Sequence record: MG252615.1
Source: Escherichia phage vB_EcoS_HSE2
Reading direction: 5' to 3' (one strand)
DNA: 41,317 bases
The stretch's first letter is position 1; each line of letters starts with the position of its first letter. Below, piece by piece: positions 5,943 through 35,149 of this stretch. A model generated the notes under the pieces. It ran no database searches and was not told the origin of the DNA. It saw only the letters and a list, made by a program, of their open reading frames with translations. A program made the position numbers and the translations under genes.

Positions 5943-8136
5943 AACGCTTCATCTCCGCGCCTTCTGCTACAAGAGGGAACCCATCGGCCCACTCCGGCAA
6001 TGCGCACATTAATTTTTCCAGTTCAGCCACCGTATACTCAGGGGTGTCTGGAGTTTCACATACCAGTTCATCGTGTACCGAAAGCACGATTGGATACCCG
6101 CCGCCCTCAACATTAATCATCGCATACGCAAGTAAATCACGGCACAGCGCCTGAACAATGTTTTCGCAGGCTTTGCCGCCGTGTGTGTACAGGGTAGTCC
6201 ATTGGCGGGTTAACTGGTTTTCGCCTTGGTACTTGATTCGCACATTCGTGTTTACCCGTCCGTCTTCGTCTGTTTCCTTTGTCACACTAACACCGATTCC
6301 AGGATACGAGAGGACGCGACCTGACGGCAACTCCATGCATAACCACCAACCAGGAACCTTCCTGCCGGATGAATCAAATTCTACCGTACGCCATATGCGG
6401 ATAGCCCTTCCCCCCTTCCTGCGCAAGTGTGCTCCCGCCCAAAATTCACGACCAGGATTACGAACAGCGGCTAAAATTCCGTCTTTAAGGTCGCGCCAGA
6501 ACGCTACTGTTTCGGGGTGTGACTCGCGCCACATACGCTTGATTGCGTCACATGTGCGCCACACTTTCTTATCAAGAATATACGATGGTCTGTCATCCTT
6601 TTCACCCGGATGCGGCGGTCGCTTTGCTTCCTGAATACGCGCCCACTCATACCCACGTGCGGTAGCGGCCCAGATGTGGTCGGGGAATGTACCGTCCATT
6701 GTTTTTGCCATCTCAATAAGGTCAAGACCTAAGTTTTTAGCGAACGTAACGAACGCTCCGACGCCCCCCTCATAGCCGAGGCCAAGCTCGCAGGCCTTGC
6801 CTATCTGTCTGATTTCCTTGAAGTTTTTCTTAATATCGTCGGGGTCCATGCCGAACATCTTACCTGCGGTTACGCAGTAAATATCCAGCCCTGCACGGAA
6901 CGTATCGAGCGCAGTTTCTTCTCCCGCCAGCCACGCTAAACCACGGCCTTCGACGTTAGAGTAATCGGCGACGACAAACTTATGTCCGGCTTCCGGGATA
7001 ATGCAGCTACGAACCGTAGATGCCGTTAGCTTGGCTACATCAAAACGGCGATGCGCTCGGCCCTTAAGTAACGCTGAAATGCCTTTATCCAGTTCATCAT
7101 CGTGATAGTAACCGCGCGCCAGGTTCTGCGGCTGGAAGCCTTTACCCGCCCATCGCAGAGTACGTTTTGCCCCGCCGTACTGCAAGCAACCGCGGCGTCG
7201 GTCGTCCGATGAGCGGCCTAACAGTAGCGGGTTATATTTCGTTGATGCTGTGGATGCCGCCCCGAGGCGCATTTCGATAATCGTGCGCGCGTCGTCCGGT
7301 AAATCATCGTCGGCCAGCAGGTCATTCAGCGTTGACTTCTGTGCGTTGTGGATTCGGTGCGCAGGAGCCAGTTCACGCAGAATTGGCAGGAAGTCTTTAC
7401 CGGTAAGCGAGCCGCCGTATTTGCGTTGGGCTTCTTCCTGTAACTGCGCTTTGTGTTTCTCCACGGCTTCAATCGCGGCTTCCGCCAGTGCAACGTCAAC
7501 CTTAAACCCGCGGTCATTGATTAACTGGTCCAGTTCCAGTACACGGTCCTCGAACTCAGAGTTACCCCAACGCGGCAGCTTATGGAATACTTCACGCATC
7601 GCAGTGATGTCGCTCACGGCGTACTTGATGAACAGCGCCCACTCGTCCGGGTGTGTTTCAGCGGTGTAGCGGCGGATTTTGTAGTTCTTCGGTGTTGGTT
7701 TAGAGAAACGCTGAATCAGCGCCTTGCCGCGTTTGTCTTTCGCGTTGTCTGCGGACACGCCCAGCACTTCGCACAAGGCATCAAGAGAACCCGGCAGCGC
7801 GTGGCGAAACGCCCAAATCATCGTATCAATAGTGTTGCTTACCGGTATATCGAAGCCCCAGCAGTGTTTCATGATTAGGCGATCGAACATTGAACCGTTG
7901 TGCCACGCCATCTTAATACGGCTGTTTGGCTTCACCAGGCGGCGTAACGCGCGGTGCAAATCTCCAGGCATGTCGCTGCCGTCGGTGCAATCCCATACCT
8001 GCACAGGTTCGTCGTCAAAAGCGTATGTGCAGATAAGCACTTCGGTTGACGGGTGTTCAGCGTAAGCGTAGGAACCGACTTTCTTTAAATCTATGCCGCT
8101 GTAGGTTTCAAAGTCTAAGTAAAGCAATGTGTTCAT
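5932..8136 (-). CDS. DNA polymerase, family A, with N-terminal 3'-5' exonuclease domain
   Basis: Exo motif LDFETYS; polymerase motifs DYSNVEGR (A), KxxxKxxNFGxxYG-like (B), VHDEL (C); ATG at 8136 overlaps upstream stop (ATGA). Confidence 0.85.
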   Translation of the reverse strand: MNTLLYLDFETYSGIDLKKVGSYAYAEHPSTEVLICTYAFDDEPVQVWDCTDGSDMPGDLHRALRRLVKPNSRIKMAWHNGSMFDRLIMKHCWGFDIPVSNTIDTMIWAFRHALPGSLDALCEVLGVSADNAKDKRGKALIQRFSKPTPKNYKIRRYTAETHPDEWALFIKYAVSDITAMREVFHKLPRWGNSEFEDRVLELDQLINDRGFKVDVALAEAAIEAVEKHKAQLQEEAQRKYGGSLTGKDFLPILRELAPAHRIHNAQKSTLNDLLADDDLPDDARTIIEMRLGAASTASTKYNPLLLGRSSDDRRRGCLQYGGAKRTLRWAGKGFQPQNLARGYYHDDELDKGISALLKGRAHRRFDVAKLTASTVRSCIIPEAGHKFVVADYSNVEGRGLAWLAGEETALDTFRAGLDIYCVTAGKMFGMDPDDIKKNFKEIRQIGKACELGLGYEGGVGAFVTFAKNLGLDLIEMAKTMDGTFPDHIWAATARGYEWARIQEAKRPPHPGEKDDRPSYILDKKVWRTCDAIKRMWRESHPETVAFWRDLKDGILAAVRNPGREFWAGAHLRRKGGRAIRIWRTVEFDSSGRKVPGWWLCMELPSGRVLSYPGIGVSVTKETDEDGRVNTNVRIKYQGENQLTRQWTTLYTHGGKACENIVQALCRDLLAYAMINVEGGGYPIVLSVHDELVCETPDTPEYTVAELEKLMCALPEWADGFPLVAEGAEMKRYAK

Positions 8137-8411
8137 AGTCCGTACCACGTCTGATAGTCTGCTTCTGTTAGATGGTCGTCGCGTTCTGGTTTCTTGTTTT
8201 TACCACGTTCTATTATTTCCGCCCGAGTCCGGTCTGGGTCTGTGTCCTCTATTAAGTGTTTATGTTCCTCGCATGCATAGTGTTTATACCAGTCTCGTAC
8301 CTTGTAAGCGGGAGGGTATTTAGTCATCCAAATTGCTCTAACTTTTTTACCTTCTGCCTTGCAAAATTTGCAGTAGGTGACGTGTCTGTATCTCTTAAGT
8401 TCCGCTGCCAT
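8133..8411 (-). CDS. Hypothetical Cys/His-rich protein (92 aa)
   Basis: CKFC and CEEH pairs suggest a zinc-binding fold. Confidence 0.45.
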   Translation of the reverse strand: MAAELKRYRHVTYCKFCKAEGKKVRAIWMTKYPPAYKVRDWYKHYACEEHKHLIEDTDPDRTRAEIIERGKNKKPERDDHLTEADYQTWYGL

Positions 8412-8470: not shown

Positions 8471-9097
8471 TTAGCGGCGGCGACGTTCGCGGCGCGGTGC
8501 TTCATCTTCTTCGTCGTCTTCCAGGTCATTGACGCTTGCAGCGACTTTAGAACCCCCGAACGCTTTACCCTCACCAACGTATTTAATTGCCAGCAGGTTA
8601 ACCCCGAGGACTTTGTATTTCTGGCTGAACCAGATTTCGACGCTTACGTTAGCAACGCAGCCGCTGTAAACCTGTTCGCCTTCAATCTGTTCGCCGTCTA
8701 CGTTGAAGTCCTGTTCTACCTGAGTCTCACCTTTTTTAGAGGTTACAATCAGTGGCTGTTTCTGTGCCTTTGCTTTGAAGTAGAAGCCTTCCGGGAAGTC
8801 TTCAAACGGATTGTCGCGCTCGGCGATGTCTTTAATCGCGCATTTATCCATGTGCTTACCTTCGCCGTAGTTGGACTTCATCCACTTCTCGGCGGCGGCT
8901 GCACCTAATGCTTCTTCAACTACAGCGTAGACTGTGTCGTAGAGCGCATCGATTTGCGCGTGGTCAGACGGCAGGATGATAGTTGCGCTATACTGACCTT
9001 TAGTGATTGAGCCATCATCGTTTTCACGGTCTTTTTCGCGTTCGAATACGTTAACCCAAGCAGTGTTTACTTTACGCAGATTTAATTTCAGTCCCAT
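8471..9097 (-). CDS. Putative ssDNA-binding protein (phage SSB-like, acidic C-terminal region)
   Basis: About 208 aa, acidic stretch DLEDDEEDE near C-terminus, placed inside the replication module; fold not verified. Confidence 0.4.
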   Translation of the reverse strand: MGLKLNLRKVNTAWVNVFEREKDRENDDGSITKGQYSATIILPSDHAQIDALYDTVYAVVEEALGAAAAEKWMKSNYGEGKHMDKCAIKDIAERDNPFEDFPEGFYFKAKAQKQPLIVTSKKGETQVEQDFNVDGEQIEGEQVYSGCVANVSVEIWFSQKYKVLGVNLLAIKYVGEGKAFGGSKVAASVNDLEDDEEDEAPRRERRRR

Positions 9098-9150: not shown

Positions 9151-9179
9151 ACTATAATAGCTTACTATTCAGGTGTCAA
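9151..9179 (-). promoter_or_regulatory. Sigma70-type early promoter with palindromic operator in spacer
   Basis: TTGACA, 17-nt spacer, TATAGT on minus strand; spacer has AATAGC-TT-ACTATT (9156..9169). Confidence 0.6.
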
Positions 9180-9183
9180 CACT

Positions 9184-9675
9184 TTATTTGCCGTGGTTTT
9201 CGTGGAAACCGTACTTAACTTCTGCAGCCTTTCTCGCGGCTATTGCGTCGTCGATAGTTTCGAAACGTCCGAGATGAATTACTCGCTTCTTAACTTTTAT
9301 CTCAGCTCGCCATTTTCCGCGGCTTTTATCAAACCTAACACCCGTCACACCGGACGTGTTGTTGCGAGCTAAAGATAAATTACGGCTGTTCTCTTTTCGG
9401 GTTGTTTTCCTCAAATTAGAAAGAAGATTATTTTCTCGATTATGGTCGATATGGTCTATCTCCTCTCCGGGTTGAAGTTTATTTTCAGGCTTCATCATAT
9501 CCCATATAATTCTATGCGCCTGAAATGTCCTTCCGTGTAAACGGACGCACACATAACCCCAATTACGAACAGCAGCAACTTCGCTCCCGGCGGGCGCGCG
9601 ATTGCTGTTAGTTACGCGCCAATATAACTTACCAGTGTTGGTGTCATACCTAAAATAATCTCCCCATTTAATCAT
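9184..9675 (-). CDS. HNH homing endonuclease with C-terminal AP2 DNA-binding domain
   Basis: HNH motif IDHIDHNRENN...N; AP2-like GVTGVRFDKSRGKWRAEIKV...HLGRFETIDDAIAARKAAEVKYG; ATGA overlap with upstream gene. Confidence 0.75.
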   Translation of the reverse strand: MIKWGDYFRYDTNTGKLYWRVTNSNRAPAGSEVAAVRNWGYVCVRLHGRTFQAHRIIWDMMKPENKLQPGEEIDHIDHNRENNLLSNLRKTTRKENSRNLSLARNNTSGVTGVRFDKSRGKWRAEIKVKKRVIHLGRFETIDDAIAARKAAEVKYGFHENHGK

Positions 9676-10928
9676 TCCAAATCCTCCTCTGTTACCCCTT
9701 TCCACTCAGGTCGTTTGTCGTCTGCTGCGGCGATTGTCGGTCGACCAGGATTACGGATAATGAATTCCGTCAGTTCTTCTTCTGGGATAACTTTCACGGC
9801 TGCTGTAGGGGTAATGATTGACTTAGCCATAACTTTATCTCCAAATTTAGCAATAACTGCCTCTGGGTCCGCCCAGGAGCGATTGCCACCCCGCCCTTCA
9901 ACCAGTTTGTACCCCGGCACTTTCTTACCGGAATGCAACGCAGTAGCCATAGCTTTTTCAACCTTGTCGATGTGCTGGCGCAACAACGGCAACTTCTCAT
10001 ACTCAGCTACTAGTTGCTCCGGCGTAAGCTCAAGTGCAAAGTCGTCCTCCAGTTCTTCCGCCAGCACAGAATTAACCGTCTTTGTACGCGCGGCGCATTG
10101 TTCTGAGAACCGACACCACTGACAACCATCGACCGACGGTTTGAAATCCGACGCTTTAAGGTTCTTCTTACCGCGGAAATAAGCATCAAGCGCTAACAGC
10201 GCGCGTTTCTGTGCGAACTTAGCGAACAGTTCCAGACCTTCAACCGAGATGTCCCACTCCGACGCACCGCCCGCGTATGGCTGGAAGATGACCAGACGAA
10301 CCACGGTGATGTTATAACGTCTCTTGAGTCGGCGATAAACACCAAGAGCGTAAAGCATGAGCTGCTTGTTTTCTTTCGCTTCGACACGATGCCGTCCAGT
10401 TTTCAGGTCGCCGATAATGAGCATGTGCTCGTCGGAGTTAGCCAGTTCCCGCACGGCAACAAGGTCAGCCGTTCCGAACGTCTCAACGCCTTCGTACCCT
10501 GGGTGCAATACCTCAGTAAGATTGACGCGCATTTCCAGCTTGGCGTATGTCGCTACATCGATAATCGCTTTGCAGTAGTCGGTGTACTTTCGCACCTGTT
10601 CAATCATGTCCGCCGTAATCAGTACCGCACCTTTCATCGGGCTGATAAGCGCCTTAATCTGGCCTTTACCCTCATCCAGCACGTAAGTACCGACTTCGCG
10701 CTCTAACGGCAACGCAGTTCCGCGAATATAAGCGTTGAGGTGGACCTCCGCTATTGTGTGGCACGCGGTCCCTGTAACGGCGGATTTACCAGACGTGTTG
10801 GGGATATCTTTTTCGCATGCCAGTGATGCAGCACAACTCAGCCACTTTTTAGCACCTGACGGCGACAGTAAGGCGTGCACGTCATTATTGCCGCCGCGTT
10901 CTTTTAAAATCATGCCCTGTTCTCCCAC
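9672..10928 (-). CDS. PD-(D/E)XK nuclease, Cas4/RecB-like, with 4-Cys cluster
   Basis: DLKTGRH...E.K...QLMLYALG nuclease motifs; N-terminal Cys plus C-terminal CQWCRFSEQC. Confidence 0.6.
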   Translation of the reverse strand: MGEQGMILKERGGNNDVHALLSPSGAKKWLSCAASLACEKDIPNTSGKSAVTGTACHTIAEVHLNAYIRGTALPLEREVGTYVLDEGKGQIKALISPMKGAVLITADMIEQVRKYTDYCKAIIDVATYAKLEMRVNLTEVLHPGYEGVETFGTADLVAVRELANSDEHMLIIGDLKTGRHRVEAKENKQLMLYALGVYRRLKRRYNITVVRLVIFQPYAGGASEWDISVEGLELFAKFAQKRALLALDAYFRGKKNLKASDFKPSVDGCQWCRFSEQCAARTKTVNSVLAEELEDDFALELTPEQLVAEYEKLPLLRQHIDKVEKAMATALHSGKKVPGYKLVEGRGGNRSWADPEAVIAKFGDKVMAKSIITPTAAVKVIPEEELTEFIIRNPGRPTIAAADDKRPEWKGVTEEDLE

Positions 10929-21382: not shown

Positions 21383-21928
21383 ATGAAGCTGAAACTTAAG
21401 CAGCCATCGCCAGAGGTGGTGCAAGCTGCACATGAAGAAGCTGTTAGCGCAAACCGTCGCCGTAAACGACCGCGCGGCAAACAGAGTCTTTATCAATCAT
21501 CCCGTAATTCCGCCGCGTTGTGGGACCCGGGCTATTGCGATGCATTAATCAAGTTCTTCGACCGCACGTCATGGGAACTTGTGCCTACATCTAAGGGTGA
21601 CGAACGTCCGCTGATTCAGGATAAACCGCCGTCACTGGCCCGCTTCGCCTTGCACATCGGCGTCACTATCCCGATTATTAAGCTGTGGCTGCGTGAGATT
21701 CCCGCATTTGCCGAAGCCTATGAAACAGCGCAGGCACTTGAAGAGGCATACTTCACCGAGACAGGCGCGGCGGGTATCTCTGCTACGTTTGCCGCAGCTA
21801 AGCTAGGCCTTAGCAAAGAGAAACCAGTTGAATCCACCGAAGAAACAGCACCGACTGAGATTGTTTTCAGTGTTGCAGAGCCTGTAGGTAAAATCGTAAC
21901 AACGAATATGGGCGAGGTAGAGGAATGA
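21383..21928 (+). CDS. Putative terminase small subunit
   Basis: Immediately upstream of, and overlapping, the large terminase; AAGGGGA Shine-Dalgarno; basic N-terminal region. Confidence 0.5.
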   Translation: MKLKLKQPSPEVVQAAHEEAVSANRRRKRPRGKQSLYQSSRNSAALWDPGYCDALIKFFDRTSWELVPTSKGDERPLIQDKPPSLARFALHIGVTIPIIKLWLREIPAFAEAYETAQALEEAYFTETGAAGISATFAAAKLGLSKEKPVESTEETAPTEIVFSVAEPVGKIVTTNMGEVEE

Positions 21929-23175
21929 GTATTCAGCTATCGGCCCCGCAGGCATTGTTCCTGAATTGTGATAACAAGTACAAGGCCTACGTCGGCGGCT
22001 TCGGAAGTGGCAAGACATTTGTTGGCTGCCTTGACCTGCTTACGTTTATGCTCAAGCACCCAAGTACGCGCCTGGGCTACTTCGGCCCGACCTATCCCGC
22101 CATCCGTGACATCTTCTACCCAACATTCGAGGAAGCGGCTAACCTGCTCGGCCTTGATGTGCTGGTTAAATCCGGCGACAAAGAGGTTGTGGTTACGCGC
22201 GGTAAGACTGTGCTCGGGACCGTTATCTGCCGTTCGATGGATAACCCGGGGTCTATCGTTGGTTTCAAAATCGCTGCGGCAGTCGTCGATGAGCTGGACG
22301 TATTGAGCCGTGAAAAAGCTGAACTGGCGTGGAACAAAATTGTGGCCCGTATGCGTCTGGTTATCCCCGGCGTAACTAACCACATCTCTGTCACCACGAC
22401 ACCGGAAGGGTTCAAGTTCGTCTATGCCAAGTTCAAAGAGAACCCGACGCCGAGTTACTCGATGGTGCAGGCTTCTACACACGAGAACGCGCGATTCCTG
22501 CCGCCTGACTACATTAGCTCACTGACCGAGACTTACCCCGCGCAACTGATTAACGCGTACCTGAACGGTGAGTTCGTTAACCTGACATCCGGCAGCGTGT
22601 ATTATGCGTATGACCGTCGCAAGCACCGCAGCAAAGAGACAATTCAACCGGGCGATACACTGTACATCGGGCAGGACTTCAACGTTACGAAGAACGCCAG
22701 CGCCGTGTATGTGCAACGTAAAGACGGCTGGCACGCGGTGGCAGAACTGAAAGGCCTGTTCGATACGCCGGACACCGTGCGCGTAATTACAGAGAAGTGG
22801 AAGTCACAAGGCCACCGCATCGTCGTTTACCCGGATGCCAGCGGCAAGAACCGCAAGACTAACTCGGCGTCAATCTCTGATATTGCGTTACTACAGCAGG
22901 CAGGGTTTGATGTTCGCGCTAAATCTGCCAACCCCCCGGTTAAAGACCGTGTTTTAGCGGTGAATACCGCGCTGGAAAAAGGTAAGCTGTGGATTAACGA
23001 CCACTTATGCCCTGAGATAGCGAAGACGCTGGAACAGCAGGCATACGACGATAACGGAGAGCCAGCTAAAGACGGCGTCATTGACCATATGGCGGATGCT
23101 CTCGGCTATCCTGTAGTTTACGAGATGCCGGTGGTTAAACCAGTAATCAACATCCCGGTGACTTTCGCACTTTAA
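21925..23175 (+). CDS. terL: Terminase large subunit
   Basis: Walker A GGFGSGKT, Walker B VVDELD, C-terminal nuclease-like acidic residues. Confidence 0.85.
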   Translation: MSIQLSAPQALFLNCDNKYKAYVGGFGSGKTFVGCLDLLTFMLKHPSTRLGYFGPTYPAIRDIFYPTFEEAANLLGLDVLVKSGDKEVVVTRGKTVLGTVICRSMDNPGSIVGFKIAAAVVDELDVLSREKAELAWNKIVARMRLVIPGVTNHISVTTTPEGFKFVYAKFKENPTPSYSMVQASTHENARFLPPDYISSLTETYPAQLINAYLNGEFVNLTSGSVYYAYDRRKHRSKETIQPGDTLYIGQDFNVTKNASAVYVQRKDGWHAVAELKGLFDTPDTVRVITEKWKSQGHRIVVYPDASGKNRKTNSASISDIALLQQAGFDVRAKSANPPVKDRVLAVNTALEKGKLWINDHLCPEIAKTLEQQAYDDNGEPAKDGVIDHMADALGYPVVYEMPVVKPVINIPVTFAL

Positions 23176-23186
23176 GAGGACAACAA

Positions 23187-24680
23187 ATGGTTTCCGCAAA
23201 CATTAACGCAGGGCAAGGGCAGAACGTTAAAACCCGCCACCGCCAGTACGAAGAGTATTTCCCTAAGTGGCAGAAGGTGCGACATGCGCTTTCTGGCGAC
23301 CTGACATCGTATCTACGTGACGTCGGTAAGAATGAGCCGGACCCGGTTTACGGTCGCCAGCGTCAGGCTGAATACGAAGCGGGGGCAATTTGCTACAACT
23401 TCACCAAGCGAACGCTTTCAGGCATGGTCGGCAGCGTAATGCGCAAAGACCCCGAGATGATTATTCCGTCTCAGATGGAATACCTGACCACTAACTGTGA
23501 CGGGTCGGGCGTTGGCCTGTGGCAGCACGCACAGGATACTCTGTATGAGATTGATGCTGTTGGTCGCGGTGGTTTGCTGGTTGACGCCCCCGCGGTAGAA
23601 GTAGCTACCATGGCAGAGCAAAACGAGGGTTTACTAAACCCAACAATCGCTTTCTACACCGCAGAGAACATCATCAACTGGCGTCTCCAGCGCGTCGGGT
23701 CTGTTAATCGTGTGGTTATGGTTGTATTGCGTGAGGAATACGAGTACACCGATGGCGCGGATGAGTTCAGCCCCAACTACGGCGAGCAATACCGAGTCCT
23801 TGATATTTTCGAAGGCCAGTATCGCCAGCGTCTGTACCGCTTTAACCAGAAAGGTGCACTGATGGAAGGTGGCTATATCGAAATATTCCCGAAACTCGGT
23901 AATATTCCGGTCGGGGTGATTCCGTTCACATTCATTGGTGCAGGGAATAACGACTCAACCCCTGACGATGCACCTTTGCTGCCGTTGGCTGAACTAAACA
24001 TAGGACATTTCCGCAACAGCGCAGACAATGAGGAGTCCAGTTTCGTTGTAGGTCAGCCAACTCTGTTCATCGCCCCGGGTGAGAACATGAGCATGGAACA
24101 GTGGAAAGAAGCCAACCCACACGGCGTGCGCATGGGGTCGCGTTCAGGCCATAACATTGGTTACGGCGGCAATGCGTTTCTGGTCCAGGCCGGTGAGAAC
24201 AACCTAGCCAAGCAGAACATGTTGGATAAAGAGAACCAGGCAATCCAGATTGGTGCACAGCTTATTACCCCGACGCAGCAAATCACCGCGGAATCGGCAC
24301 GCCTGCAACGTGGTGCCGACACGTCCGTTATGGCGACAATTGCACGTAACGTAAGCATGGCGTATACCGATGCGCTGAAGTGGGTTGCTGGTATGCTTGG
24401 GCTTAGTGACGGCACTGAAATTGAGTTCAAACTGAACATGGAGTTCTTCCTGCAACCAATGACCGCCCAGGACCGCGCTCAGTGGATGGCGGACATTAAC
24501 GCCGGCTTGCTACCCGCCACCGCTTATTATGCTGCGTTGCGTAAGGCCGGTGTAACTGACTGGACCGACGAGGATATTCAGAACGCTATCGAAGACGCGC
24601 CGCTGCCGTTAGGTGCAAATACTCAGGTAGCGGGGGAGATTCCGCCGTCGGCGCAGCAACAAGATACCATTCAGCGGTAA
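23187..24680 (+). CDS. Portal protein
   Basis: About 497 aa directly after terL; conserved gene order. Confidence 0.7.
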   Translation: MVSANINAGQGQNVKTRHRQYEEYFPKWQKVRHALSGDLTSYLRDVGKNEPDPVYGRQRQAEYEAGAICYNFTKRTLSGMVGSVMRKDPEMIIPSQMEYLTTNCDGSGVGLWQHAQDTLYEIDAVGRGGLLVDAPAVEVATMAEQNEGLLNPTIAFYTAENIINWRLQRVGSVNRVVMVVLREEYEYTDGADEFSPNYGEQYRVLDIFEGQYRQRLYRFNQKGALMEGGYIEIFPKLGNIPVGVIPFTFIGAGNNDSTPDDAPLLPLAELNIGHFRNSADNEESSFVVGQPTLFIAPGENMSMEQWKEANPHGVRMGSRSGHNIGYGGNAFLVQAGENNLAKQNMLDKENQAIQIGAQLITPTQQITAESARLQRGADTSVMATIARNVSMAYTDALKWVAGMLGLSDGTEIEFKLNMEFFLQPMTAQDRAQWMADINAGLLPATAYYAALRKAGVTDWTDEDIQNAIEDAPLPLGANTQVAGEIPPSAQQQDTIQR

Positions 24681-33035: not shown

Positions 33036-33062
33036 AACTAAGGCCCCGAAAGGGGCCTTTTC
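33036..33062. terminator. Bidirectional terminator, near-identical to the one at 3361..3387
   Basis: AAGGCCCC-GAAA-GGGGCCTT plus T-run; A-rich upstream. Confidence 0.7.
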
Positions 33063-33293
33063 TCACTCATCAATGTTACTCCTGTATTCTCGTAACTTCT
33101 CCAGGCTTTCAATTGCTTCTGCTAAGTCGGTTCCAGTGTCCTTGTGCCCTCGAAGGCCCATACACAATAGCTTCTTCAATGCGTGCTGTAACGCAGGGTC
33201 GCGGATGTCGAAAGCACGTAGCACATCGTAAACGTCTACAGTCATAGTGCTGCCGTGAGTGTTTGTCATTGTGCGGTTGTATTTTGAAGTCAT
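33063..33293 (-). CDS. Hypothetical protein (76 aa), last gene of leftward cassette
   Basis: ORF track. Confidence 0.4.
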   Translation of the reverse strand: MTSKYNRTMTNTHGSTMTVDVYDVLRAFDIRDPALQHALKKLLCMGLRGHKDTGTDLAEAIESLEKLREYRSNIDE

Positions 33294-33306
33294 AAATCAC
33301 TTTTCC

Positions 33307-33777
33307 CTACTCATGGTTTTCATGGAAACCGTATTTACTCTCGGCGGCTTTACGCGCAGCAACCGCTACATCAAAATCGTCGTAAAGCCCTAAATGCACT
33401 TGTTTGTAGTTAACTTTTATAAACGCGCGCCACTTACCCGCGGCTTTGTGGAAACTTACGCCTGTAGCCCCGGATTTATTTATCTTTCGCATAGTTTTAT
33501 TTTTACTGTTCCCTGTATTGTCGGTGGCGCGTAGATTTTCTATTCTATTGTCTAGCCTGTTATGGTTTATGTGGTCTATTTGAGTTTTCCTGTCTAAGTT
33601 GCATTTATTATAAAGACACCATGCTATGCGGTGGACATACACTGTTTTACCACCCATACCGCAGCACAGATAACCTCTTACACCAACCGTACCAACCTCA
33701 GCACCAGTAGATAACCTGGTAACCCTCCCAGTCTCAGGGCAGTATTTAAATTGTTTTGAAACATCAAGATATTTCAT
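33307..33777 (-). CDS. HNH homing endonuclease with AP2 domain (paralog of 9184..9675)
   Basis: HNH motif IDHINHNRLDNRIEN; AP2-like GATGVSFHKAAGKWRAFIKV...AARKAAESKYGFHENHE. Confidence 0.75.
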   Translation of the reverse strand: MKYLDVSKQFKYCPETGRVTRLSTGAEVGTVGVRGYLCCGMGGKTVYVHRIAWCLYNKCNLDRKTQIDHINHNRLDNRIENLRATDNTGNSKNKTMRKINKSGATGVSFHKAAGKWRAFIKVNYKQVHLGLYDDFDVAVAARKAAESKYGFHENHE

Positions 33778-34904
33778 CTTAGCATCTCCGGTGAGATTGA
33801 AAGCCTACCTACTTCCCCGAACTCTGAACTATAGGTTATGACATTAGCGGACCTCTTAGACATCCACCCGCCGCGAGAAGCATATGCATCTTTCGCCGCG
33901 AGAGTGCGATGCTGCTCCACTACCATATTCCTACTTTCTACGATCTTTTGGTGGTGGAGATGCCCAACATGTGCATAACTGTACTCGCTTTCGCCGAATG
34001 CTTTTCTGAACTTAGCTATCATAATGGGTTCGACCACCTCAAACCGGCATTTATGCCCGTGTGTAAAGAACAGAGTCGTTTTGCCGTGTTGCACCATCTT
34101 GTAAACATCCGGCGACGTATCGACGAACACACGCGGCTCATTGTCATATAGCGTGCTGAACATCTCAGCTAACCAAATCATTCCGCTTTCGTCGTGGTTA
34201 CCTTGAACGATTAAAAGTTTTACTGTGTGATGCTTAACCAGCGCCATATCGACAACACGACGCACCATACGAATCATGTAGCGAACTAGTTTCTGATAGC
34301 GAGTATCGGCGTCTAACACATGACGCGACTCAGGGGTAACGGCATCAAGACTATCGAAGTGCGCGAAGTCTCCTAGCAGATTAATAACTCCTGTTCCCGC
34401 GTCCGGTGCTTTCTGAAACGCCGCGTCGAACCATCGAGAGAACAGGTCTTCTGCAATCTTCATGTCCCAGTCGTCGCCGCTCTCGTCTGCCCATGCAAGC
34501 ATACCGAGATGGAAATCAGACACAGTGTAAAGATTGAGAAGTTTATCGTCGCGTTTGGCGCGAGTCGCTTTAACAGGCGCAACAGGTGTAATCTCTGACT
34601 TCATGCCTTCAATTACGGCTTTCATCAACTCGACCTGACGTTCAGCATCGGTGTCAGTCTTAACCCATTGCAACTTAGTGTTGCCGAACTCGTCCACCAG
34701 GGACGACGTGCCTTTAATCTTGTAGCCGTCCGGCACAAGGTGACTAACGTCGCGCCCGTGGCCTACACCTTTCTTAGCCAGCTTCGCTTTACGGATACGA
34801 ATAACGCGGTCTGAGATGCCGTATTTACGGGCGATATCAATAATCTTCATCCCGGCGTTCAATTCTTCCTGTAACTGTTCGTCGGTTATTTTCTTCTGGG
34901 CCAT
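33774..34904 (-). CDS. Calcineurin-like metallophosphoesterase with N-terminal HTH domain
   Basis: Phosphoesterase motifs DFHLG, GDFAHFD, GNHDE, THGH, GHLHH in canonical order; N-terminal IIDIARKYGISDRVIRIRKAKL helix-turn-helix; GAGGAAG Shine-Dalgarno. Confidence 0.65.
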   Translation of the reverse strand: MAQKKITDEQLQEELNAGMKIIDIARKYGISDRVIRIRKAKLAKKGVGHGRDVSHLVPDGYKIKGTSSLVDEFGNTKLQWVKTDTDAERQVELMKAVIEGMKSEITPVAPVKATRAKRDDKLLNLYTVSDFHLGMLAWADESGDDWDMKIAEDLFSRWFDAAFQKAPDAGTGVINLLGDFAHFDSLDAVTPESRHVLDADTRYQKLVRYMIRMVRRVVDMALVKHHTVKLLIVQGNHDESGMIWLAEMFSTLYDNEPRVFVDTSPDVYKMVQHGKTTLFFTHGHKCRFEVVEPIMIAKFRKAFGESEYSYAHVGHLHHQKIVESRNMVVEQHRTLAAKDAYASRGGWMSKRSANVITYSSEFGEVGRLSISPEMLR

Positions 34905-34942
34905 GCTTACTTCCTCGTGTTTAGGATTTGTCTTATAGTAGC

Positions 34943-35149
34943 CTACTTCTCTTTCACGTTCGAGTTGCAAGCCCAGATTAAAATAAATACCCACGGCAGC
35001 AGAACCCAGCCAAGAAACAGGTTAGCCATGAATATAGCTAACTTCGCTTTATGGTTACGGAAGTACGCAACCAGGAAAGGTGCGAAATAAGCGAGCAGTG
35101 CAAACAGAATTAAGGAAACTGGTAAACTGGACATTTTAAACCCCTTCAT
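34943..35149 (-). CDS. Superinfection-immunity-like small membrane protein (Imm family-like)
   Basis: Two TM segments with R.H..KLAIF..NLFLGW...PW...LIWA, matching my recollection of the Imm-superinfection family consensus. Confidence 0.55.
   Translation of the reverse strand: MKGFKMSSLPVSLILFALLAYFAPFLVAYFRNHKAKLAIFMANLFLGWVLLPWVFILIWACNSNVKEK

Follow-up and report, generated by a model that had tools for sequence, protein, structure and literature searches.

I-HmuI of phage SPO1 (PDB 1U3E) is an intron-encoded endonuclease with C-terminal modules of the helix-turn-helix type, and Shen et al. are said to have described it in 2004 as a nickase. The SegG and MobE genes of phage T4 are intergenic, intron-less homing endonuclease genes that are inherited with neighbouring markers; the Seg enzymes are GIY-YIG proteins and the Mob enzymes are HNH proteins without an AP2 domain. 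For SegG, co-conversion from a cleavage site distant from its own gene was reportedly found by Liu et al. in 2003. Closest in architecture are the HNN-AP2 proteins, a class of free-standing phage endonucleases (PMC2248197, there citing Magnani et al. 2004) with members in T5, T1 and RB-type phages and in the Xanthomonas phages Xp10, OP1 and Xop411. In the Xanthomonas phages no conserved flanks were found, and the authors proposed sequence-independent spread and decay (PMC2248197). HNH and AP2 domains are also combined in nucleases of ICP1, a Vibrio myovirus, where they lie at the borders of conserved and swapped segments (PMC10448857).

The Escherichia phage vB_EcoS_HSE2 is a Kagunavirus (Guernseyvirinae), and its nearest genomes in GenBank are other Kagunavirus members at ~90% nucleotide identity, with Salmonella Jerseyvirus genomes at ~80% or less. 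Its sequence record (MG252615.1, 41,317 nucleotides, referred to here as the window) contains two genes, HNH1 (9184..9675, minus strand, 163 aa plus TAA) and HNH2 (33307..33777, minus strand, 156 aa plus TAG), that are already annotated "HNH endonuclease". The paper on HSE2 mentions only "two alleles of HNH endonuclease" (PMC5967307), and the Kagunavirus and Jerseyvirus papers that we consulted contain no analysis of the homing of either gene. We propose that HNH1 and HNH2 are likely to be free-standing HNH(N)-AP2 homing endonuclease genes that vB_EcoS_HSE2 acquired independently and that spread by homing. The family is textbook material, and the pair is a tidy case of familiar, unexceptional phage biology, in which both genes come and go, dragging neighbouring DNA along; added here are the base-level anatomy of the inserts, a gradient of identity toward one insert and a patch of DNA that crosses phage genera. 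The G+C content is 44% for HNH1 and 42% for HNH2, as compared to 51% for the window. A tblastn search of the window (E≤10) found no third paralogue and no decayed HNH copy.

The HNH1 and HNH2 proteins are 48% identical over 154 residues (E = 4e-45). Both exceed the Pfam HNH_3 gathering cut-off of 24.8 bits (44.5 bits for HNH1, 38.7 bits for HNH2), with the domain at aa 52-98 of HNH1 (nt 9522-9382, minus strand) and aa 46-90 of HNH2 (nt 33642-33508, minus strand), and both match phrog_99 "HNH endonuclease" (E = 7e-61 and 7e-56). I-HmuI (1u3e) was matched at E = 7e-5 in a phmmer search against PDB sequences, with D74, H75 and N96 of HNH1 aligned to the same-numbered I-HmuI residues. The predicted catalytic residues are D74/H75/N87/N96 in HNH1 and D68/H69/N81/N90 in HNH2. 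An alignment of 91 family members shows no variation at the D, the H or the structural N, and a conservation of at least 90% at the second, metal-binding N. Confident AlphaFold models (pLDDT 87.6 and 92.6) contain a beta-beta-alpha-metal fold that superposes on I-HmuI, preceded in HNH1 by an N-terminal beta region (aa 1-52). The likeness to I-HmuI lies in the fold and active site, whereas HNH1 and HNH2 are free-standing and end in an AP2 domain. The Pfam AP2 matches (E = 5e-7 and 9e-4) score 30.3 and 19.9 bits against a gathering score of 33.3 bits, which neither reaches, and a precomputed PF00847 match is present on many homologues. Because the models show the AP2 fold, a three-stranded sheet packed on a helix, where the Pfam score falls short (aa 108-152 of HNH1, nt 9354-9220, minus strand; aa 105-149 of HNH2, nt 33465-33331, minus strand), the AP2 assignment is confirmed.

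Judged by sequence and model, HNH1 and HNH2 are endonucleases of the HNN variant of His-Me finger group 2 (I-HmuI-like; classification in PMC5714182) with a C-terminal AP2 domain. They have the same domain order as the Xanthomonas phage genes (PMC2248197) and the same architecture as the free-standing enzymes of T5, T1 and RB-type phages. The HRxxW, DH, DNR, NLR and EN boxes of the Xanthomonas genes are all present, and as in those genes there are no CX2C zinc dyads in the HNH1 or HNH2 sequence. The HNH domains of the ICP1 nucleases are too divergent for Pfam HNH_3, whereas those of HNH1 and HNH2, found in Guernseyvirinae siphoviruses rather than a myovirus, are canonical HNH_3 domains. The proteins close with a C-terminal motif, A..R......GFH.NHG, in which A, R, H, N and H are invariant in 91/91 family members. 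The GFH-x-NHG tail that follows the AP2 helix (window 9184-9215 and 33307-33335) is modelled with low confidence.

HNH1 sits in the operon polA - small ORF - SSB - HNH1 - exonuclease. The upstream gene encodes a DUF2800 / PD-(D/E)XK exonuclease (9672..10928, minus strand; relatives annotate a 1242-nt version) and the downstream gene an Enc34-type ssDNA-binding protein (SSB, DUF2815; 8471..9097, minus strand). The start of HNH1 overlaps the exonuclease stop in an ATGA (GAATGATT, 9677-9670), and a Shine-Dalgarno sequence for the coupled downstream ORF, GAGGAGGA, lies within the last exonuclease codons. Directly after the HNH1 stop is the SSB promoter, a sigma-70-like TTGACA-17-TATAGT (9151..9179, minus strand, 11/12 matches) whose sequence, conserved throughout the relatives, makes up the homology arm on the downstream side of the slot. 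Aligned with empty alleles (L011, L017, L032, L036 and L050), the insert spans 9187..9674 (minus strand, 488 nt), with a boundary that is ambiguous by 1-2 A. The empty alleles read ..GAAGAAGATTTGGAA followed directly by TAAAGTGTTGACA.., and the window reads ..GAGGAGGATTTGGAA, then the insert from TGATTAAATGG to GGCAAA, then TAAAGTGTTGACA.. again. The insert gives the exonuclease a new TGA stop, and the TAA that ends HNH1 is the ancestral exonuclease stop, after which comes AGTGTTGACA.

In other loci (L013-L047, gap of 233-333 nt after the exonuclease gene) the place of HNH1 is taken by one of at least five different small ORFs. All are ATGA-coupled, with the starts ATGATTCGTA, ATGATGGTTT, ATGATTCAAG (orf67, phrog_6314), ATGAGTAAAT and ATGATTAGTA. 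In 21/21 occupied exonuclease-SSB slots (loci L010-L060) the end of the exonuclease gene reads ..ACAG(A/C)GGAGGATTTRGAATGA and carries the Shine-Dalgarno sequence, and in 21/21 empty slots it reads ..GAAGA(A/C)GATTT(R)GAATAA or ..GAAGACGATTTAG. Slot occupancy and the Shine-Dalgarno sequence in the last exonuclease codons (window 9676-9700) therefore covary perfectly, and both versions encode ..EED(L)E. Many relatives have a 67-aa ORF in place of HNH1; we considered whether it is an HNH remnant and rejected this, since it has no HNH similarity and belongs to its own family, phrog_6314. Two further observations concern this operon. The window exonuclease has a private patch at ~9730-9770 (minus strand), TEFIIRNPGRPTIAA, at which all relatives, including the other HNH1 carriers, have K(N/D)FITRKPGAPCV(T/A)T. 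Between polA and SSB there is a 92-aa Cys/His-rich ORF (8133-8411, minus strand; ..YCKFCKAEG..HYACEEHKH..) with no Pfam match, which is absent from Ivi, BCH953P1, SHAK7693 and Bas74 and marks another variable slot.

HNH2 belongs to a minus-strand island, Imm - metallophosphoesterase - HNH2 - orf76, with the tail tube gene on one side and the chaperone/tape-measure genes on the other. The island is bounded by a promoter-like site (35203-35175) ahead of its first gene, the superinfection immunity gene Imm (34943..35149, minus strand), and by a GC-rich hairpin terminator (33040..33059, minus strand) that is convergent with the tail tube gene and is annotated as bidirectional in phage Sciku. Upstream of HNH2 is a calcineurin-like metallophosphoesterase gene (33774..34907, minus strand, with the ORF reaching 34994 if a GTG start is taken; "DNA repair exonuclease" in relatives), and downstream is the gene orf76 (phrog_2452; 33063..33293, minus strand). 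The HNH2 start overlaps the phosphoesterase stop in an ATGA (AGATGAAA, 33779-33772). In alignments with L086, L101, L104 and L144, the insert relative to the minimal allele spans 33291..33774 (minus strand, 484 nt), with a repeated ATG, one at either end. In the minimal allele ..GAGATGCTGGGATG is followed directly by ACTTCAAAATAC.., and the window reads ..GAGATGCTAAGATG, then the insert from AAATATC to GAGTAGGGAAAAGTGATTTATG, then ACTTCAAAATAC... In HNH-less alleles orf76 is the gene that is ATGA-coupled to the phosphoesterase. The insert, which consists of the HNH2 ORF after its ATG, its stop, a 17-nt spacer with a Shine-Dalgarno sequence and a new orf76 ATG, takes over this coupling and supplies orf76 with a new ribosome entry and start. 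orf76 aligns with longer PHROG families only at their C-terminal ends (for instance phrog_2452 positions 150-220 of 235) and may be a stand-alone domain or a remnant.

The two overlaps bear out the first-pass annotation, which had described both genes as ATGA-coupled to the gene upstream. Both inserts fall exactly on ATGA stop/start junctions and therefore take over translational coupling and disrupt nothing. Comparison of the two sets of alignments by eye revealed no evident insertion-site sequence common to loci 1 and 2.

The distribution of both genes is sporadic, and more than 90% of close relatives are without each of them. Among ~450 GenBank records that share the HNH1 flanks, three have an HNH1 orthologue (>90% aa), namely Ivi, BCH953P1 (OZ035754) and SHAK7693, all at the identical site. 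HNH1 was found in 0/72 IMG/VR loci that hold both exonuclease and SSB. Restricting these data to the 42 IMG/VR loci with an exonuclease at least 80% identical gives 21 empty slots (gap 85-102 nt) and 21 slots with one of at least five unrelated small ORFs. HNH2 (at least 96% aa) is present in 38 of ~460 flank-sharing GenBank records (9 Escherichia phages and 29 Salmonella phages) and overlaps the phosphoesterase gene wherever the annotation is informative. It was found in 0/43 complete IMG/VR loci, which hold orf76 alone, Sciku022 + orf76, PNK + dNMP kinase, a DNA-binding protein or other HNH lineages. Orthologues are thus not located at identical positions in all relatives. The earlier suggestion that the two genes mark mobile insertions survives this survey because HNH1 and HNH2 are absent from most flank-sharing relatives, and it agrees with the precision of the inserts relative to intact empty sites. 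As in the Xanthomonas phages, several dispersed copies per genome are combined with a patchy distribution (PMC2248197). Unlike in those phages, the HSE2 lineages are faithful to one junction, the empty sites are intact, linked tracts are visible and the window has no degenerate copies.

The sequence next to HNH2 travels with the gene. The tract from ~34100 to 33291 is 92-100% identical in all seven HNH2 carriers examined, including the Salmonella phage S104, and its phosphoesterase part (33778..34100, minus strand) is 64-82% identical to HNH2-less alleles, with mostly synonymous differences. Between the E. coli phage EC3-1 and S104, HNH2 is 98.5% identical at the nucleotide level and the last 300 nt of the phosphoesterase gene are 96.0% identical, as compared to 69-81% for the rest of the phosphoesterase gene, orf76, Imm, the tail tube gene and the chaperones. 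E. coli and Salmonella phages thus have in common a 771-nt patch of 96-98.5% identity in backbones of 69-81%. Divergence from HNH-less alleles increases toward the insert. Against the HNH-less L086, the identity of the window falls through 92, 90, 82, 75 and 67 to 64%. Against 43 HNH-less alleles it is 64.6% over the final 90 nt, 74.5% over the 200 nt before them and 82.0% farther upstream; HNH-less alleles compared among themselves give 87.7, 86.5 and 81.8% in the same three intervals. At 300-600 nt upstream the window differs from HNH-less alleles about as much as these differ from each other (82% identity in both comparisons). These comparisons provide strong sequence evidence for co-inheritance of the HNH2 flank and for spread across genera.

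The last 85-90 nt of the phosphoesterase gene are the most diverged part in HNH2 carriers. In HNH-less genomes the same segment has a mean pairwise identity of 0.84-0.88 versus 0.72-0.83 further upstream, and a third-position identity of 0.72 versus about 0.5-0.6 upstream. This segment as the HNH2 target was not upheld. One locus without HNH2, L085 (IMGVR_UViG_3300045988_014834), has the carrier-type phosphoesterase allele from ~34150 to 33858 and the HNH-less allele in the last 85 nt of the gene. Because the L085 allele is chimeric, the HNH2 target could lie in either part of the phosphoesterase gene; L085 itself has the form expected after partial co-conversion, and may be such a product or a resistant allele that lacks the HNH gene. 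Other HNH genes at the phosphoesterase junction come with ends of their own. The L094/L107/L137-type genes are 36-42% identical and have their own diverged phosphoesterase end, and the BUCT823-type gene is 33% identical and follows a phosphoesterase that is only 60% identical, again with its own diverged end. In BUCT823 the whole phosphoesterase-HNH unit appears to have been swapped. In the tail region no relative is closer than this Escherichia phage (L161, PQ729991; tail tube 98% aa, orf76 100% aa).

HNH1 likewise has a linked allele, the exonuclease 3' tract at 9676..9895 (minus strand), which is limited to HNH1-carrying genomes. The 225 nt upstream of HNH1 have a full-length match in the three carriers only, and the carriers share a block at ~9795-9895 as well as AAGGGG for ATCAGG ~20 nt upstream of the insert. 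The evidence for co-inheritance is weaker than for HNH2 because the 9795-9895 exonuclease block also varies among HNH-less alleles, and part of the linkage between HNH1 and its flank may be ordinary mosaicism. With so few carriers in GenBank, and those so alike (92-93% aa), a single acquisition followed by descent could explain them. The exonuclease-SSB slot is also occupied in distant phages. HNH1 homologues that are 80% and 69% identical reside there between an exonuclease that is 56-60% identical and an SSB that is 46-50% identical, so that genes of the HNH1 lineage are better conserved than their neighbours, and in the distant phage L059, whose exonuclease is 56% identical, the slot contains an HNH gene of 50% identity. 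In SHAK7693 (L157, OR594180) the identity to the window, ~95% up to the very 3' edge of HNH1, is 58-75% from there on, a mosaic breakpoint with HNH1 and exonuclease at 90-95% on one side and SSB at 58-75% nucleotide identity on the other. The GenBank taxonomy line of SHAK7693 (Autographiviridae; Kayfunavirus) is at odds with its Kagunavirus-like gene content. The first-pass annotation had raised the possibility that the two genes promote exchange of flanking sequence, and the linked tracts agree with it, HNH2 being accompanied by ~300 nt of phosphoesterase gene across genera and HNH1 by its own exonuclease 3' allele.

We infer nuclease activity, target location, a nick or a double-strand cut, and present-day homing from these patterns. 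Each protein would be a small monomer with an N-terminal beta-strand region, a zinc-less beta-beta-alpha-metal site (D-H...N...N) and an AP2 DNA-binding domain. In a mixed infection with a related phage that is without the gene, the enzyme would recognize a target in the HNH-less allele, within or close to the 3' end of the conserved upstream gene (the exonuclease gene for HNH1, the phosphoesterase gene for HNH2), and nick or cut the DNA there. Recombinational repair from the carrier would then copy the HNH gene, together with the stretch between the cut site and the insert, into the recipient. The carrier allele would be protected because this stretch has diverged. Such behaviour resembles that of T4 SegG and MobE, likewise intergenic, intron-less and inherited with neighbouring markers, and the one-sided HNH2-linked tract of ~300 nt matches the distant-site co-conversion described for SegG. 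The T4 enzymes differ in type from HNH1 and HNH2, which join HNH to AP2, and cleavage sites and marker exclusion have been demonstrated experimentally for Seg and Mob, whereas for HNH1 and HNH2 we infer them. The position of the ICP1 nucleases at segment borders is a further likeness.

Perhaps the HNH genes are mere passengers, inactive or without relevance, at two hot spots of recombination, and owe their patchiness and their linked flanks to ordinary homologous cassette exchange between co-infecting phages instead of to nuclease activity of their own. Because both slots are general hot spots with non-nuclease cargo, exchange at either needs no nuclease. The same conserved arms enclose small ORFs with the same Shine-Dalgarno and ATGA entry at locus 1, and PNK + dNMP kinase, Sciku022 or a DNA-binding protein at locus 2, and the swap of the whole unit in BUCT823 fits this explanation as well. 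We nevertheless consider it unlikely, since both proteins retain every invariant catalytic and structural residue and genes of the HNH1 lineage are more conserved than their essential neighbours. It also accounts poorly for an HNH2 gene that is nearly identical across genera within a tract that ends at the edge of the insert on one side and extends no more than ~300 nt on the other, the pattern expected of repair begun near the insert, and for at least three unrelated HNH lineages at one junction, each with its own diverged phosphoesterase 3' allele.

A domesticated function, as a terminase-associated packaging HNH, a recombination partner of the exonuclease and SSB, or an AP2 regulator of the adjacent promoter, appears highly improbable. 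The position of HNH1 inside a recombination/replication operon and directly upstream of the strong SSB promoter would suit such a role, as would the translational coupling of both genes to nuclease/phosphoesterase genes, and in other systems the DNA-binding domains of homing endonucleases are known to serve in regulation (PMC10448857). However, the great majority of close relatives do without each gene and are viable isolates, and neither gene is conserved with any partner beyond its site. A terminase-associated HNH of the HK97 gp74 type is rejected by position, as the HNH genes, at 9.2 kb and 33.3 kb, are not adjacent to the large terminase gene (21925-23175) or the portal-like gene (23187-24680), and at least 10 kb separates each HNH gene from the large terminase. 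Recent duplication within the genome, with one copy derived from the other and the C-terminus shared by gene conversion, is effectively refuted. The common architecture, the overall identity and the almost identical last 18 residues would be expected of it, but 56/89 family members are closer to HNH1 than HNH2 is, the C-terminal motif is invariant throughout the family, the 3' ends have only 67% DNA identity over 134 nt, and near-identical orthologues of each gene occupy its own site in other phages. The description of the two genes in the first-pass annotation as paralogs with shared HNH and AP2 domains and near-identical C-termini is therefore correct as to family, domains and the termini as written; the termini signify no special link between the copies, which are independent acquisitions rather than duplicates of each other.

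Returning to homing, we tentatively extend it to a more general proposal, whose chances we place a little short of even, that each HNH-AP2 lineage in the Guernseyvirinae is tied to one ATGA junction, cuts the 3' end of the upstream gene and forces replacement of that end. If this is true, HNH2 has recently swept a phosphoesterase allele of ~300 nt across the boundary between Escherichia Kagunavirus and Salmonella Jerseyvirus. Rival HNH lineages would then compete for one junction, each shielded by its own diverged allele, and genomes of the L085 type would be HNH-less resistant products of partial co-conversion. The phages would also offer a tractable natural system for target recognition by AP2-type enzymes and for inter-genus gene drive in small siphoviruses. 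The exact inserts, the identity gradient and the cross-genus patch, for their part, show HNH-AP2 elements carrying DNA from one phage genus to another, in genera that are used in therapy and biocontrol. Concrete predictions for target sites follow, and no concept is changed by the finding.

Relatives have additional HNH genes near both loci. The island between the phosphoesterase and tail tube genes contains several other HNH lineages (L094, L107, L137, L089, L110, L099; L008 = ORH_001) at three positions, directly after the phosphoesterase gene, after orf76 and on the opposite strand, and PNK + dNMP kinase cassettes also reside in this island. At neighbouring junctions of the replication operon there are HNH genes in L156 (BCH953P1, 772-1254) and L159 (5240-5743), one of them 46% identical and just upstream of the exonuclease gene, the other 32% identical and just upstream of polA.
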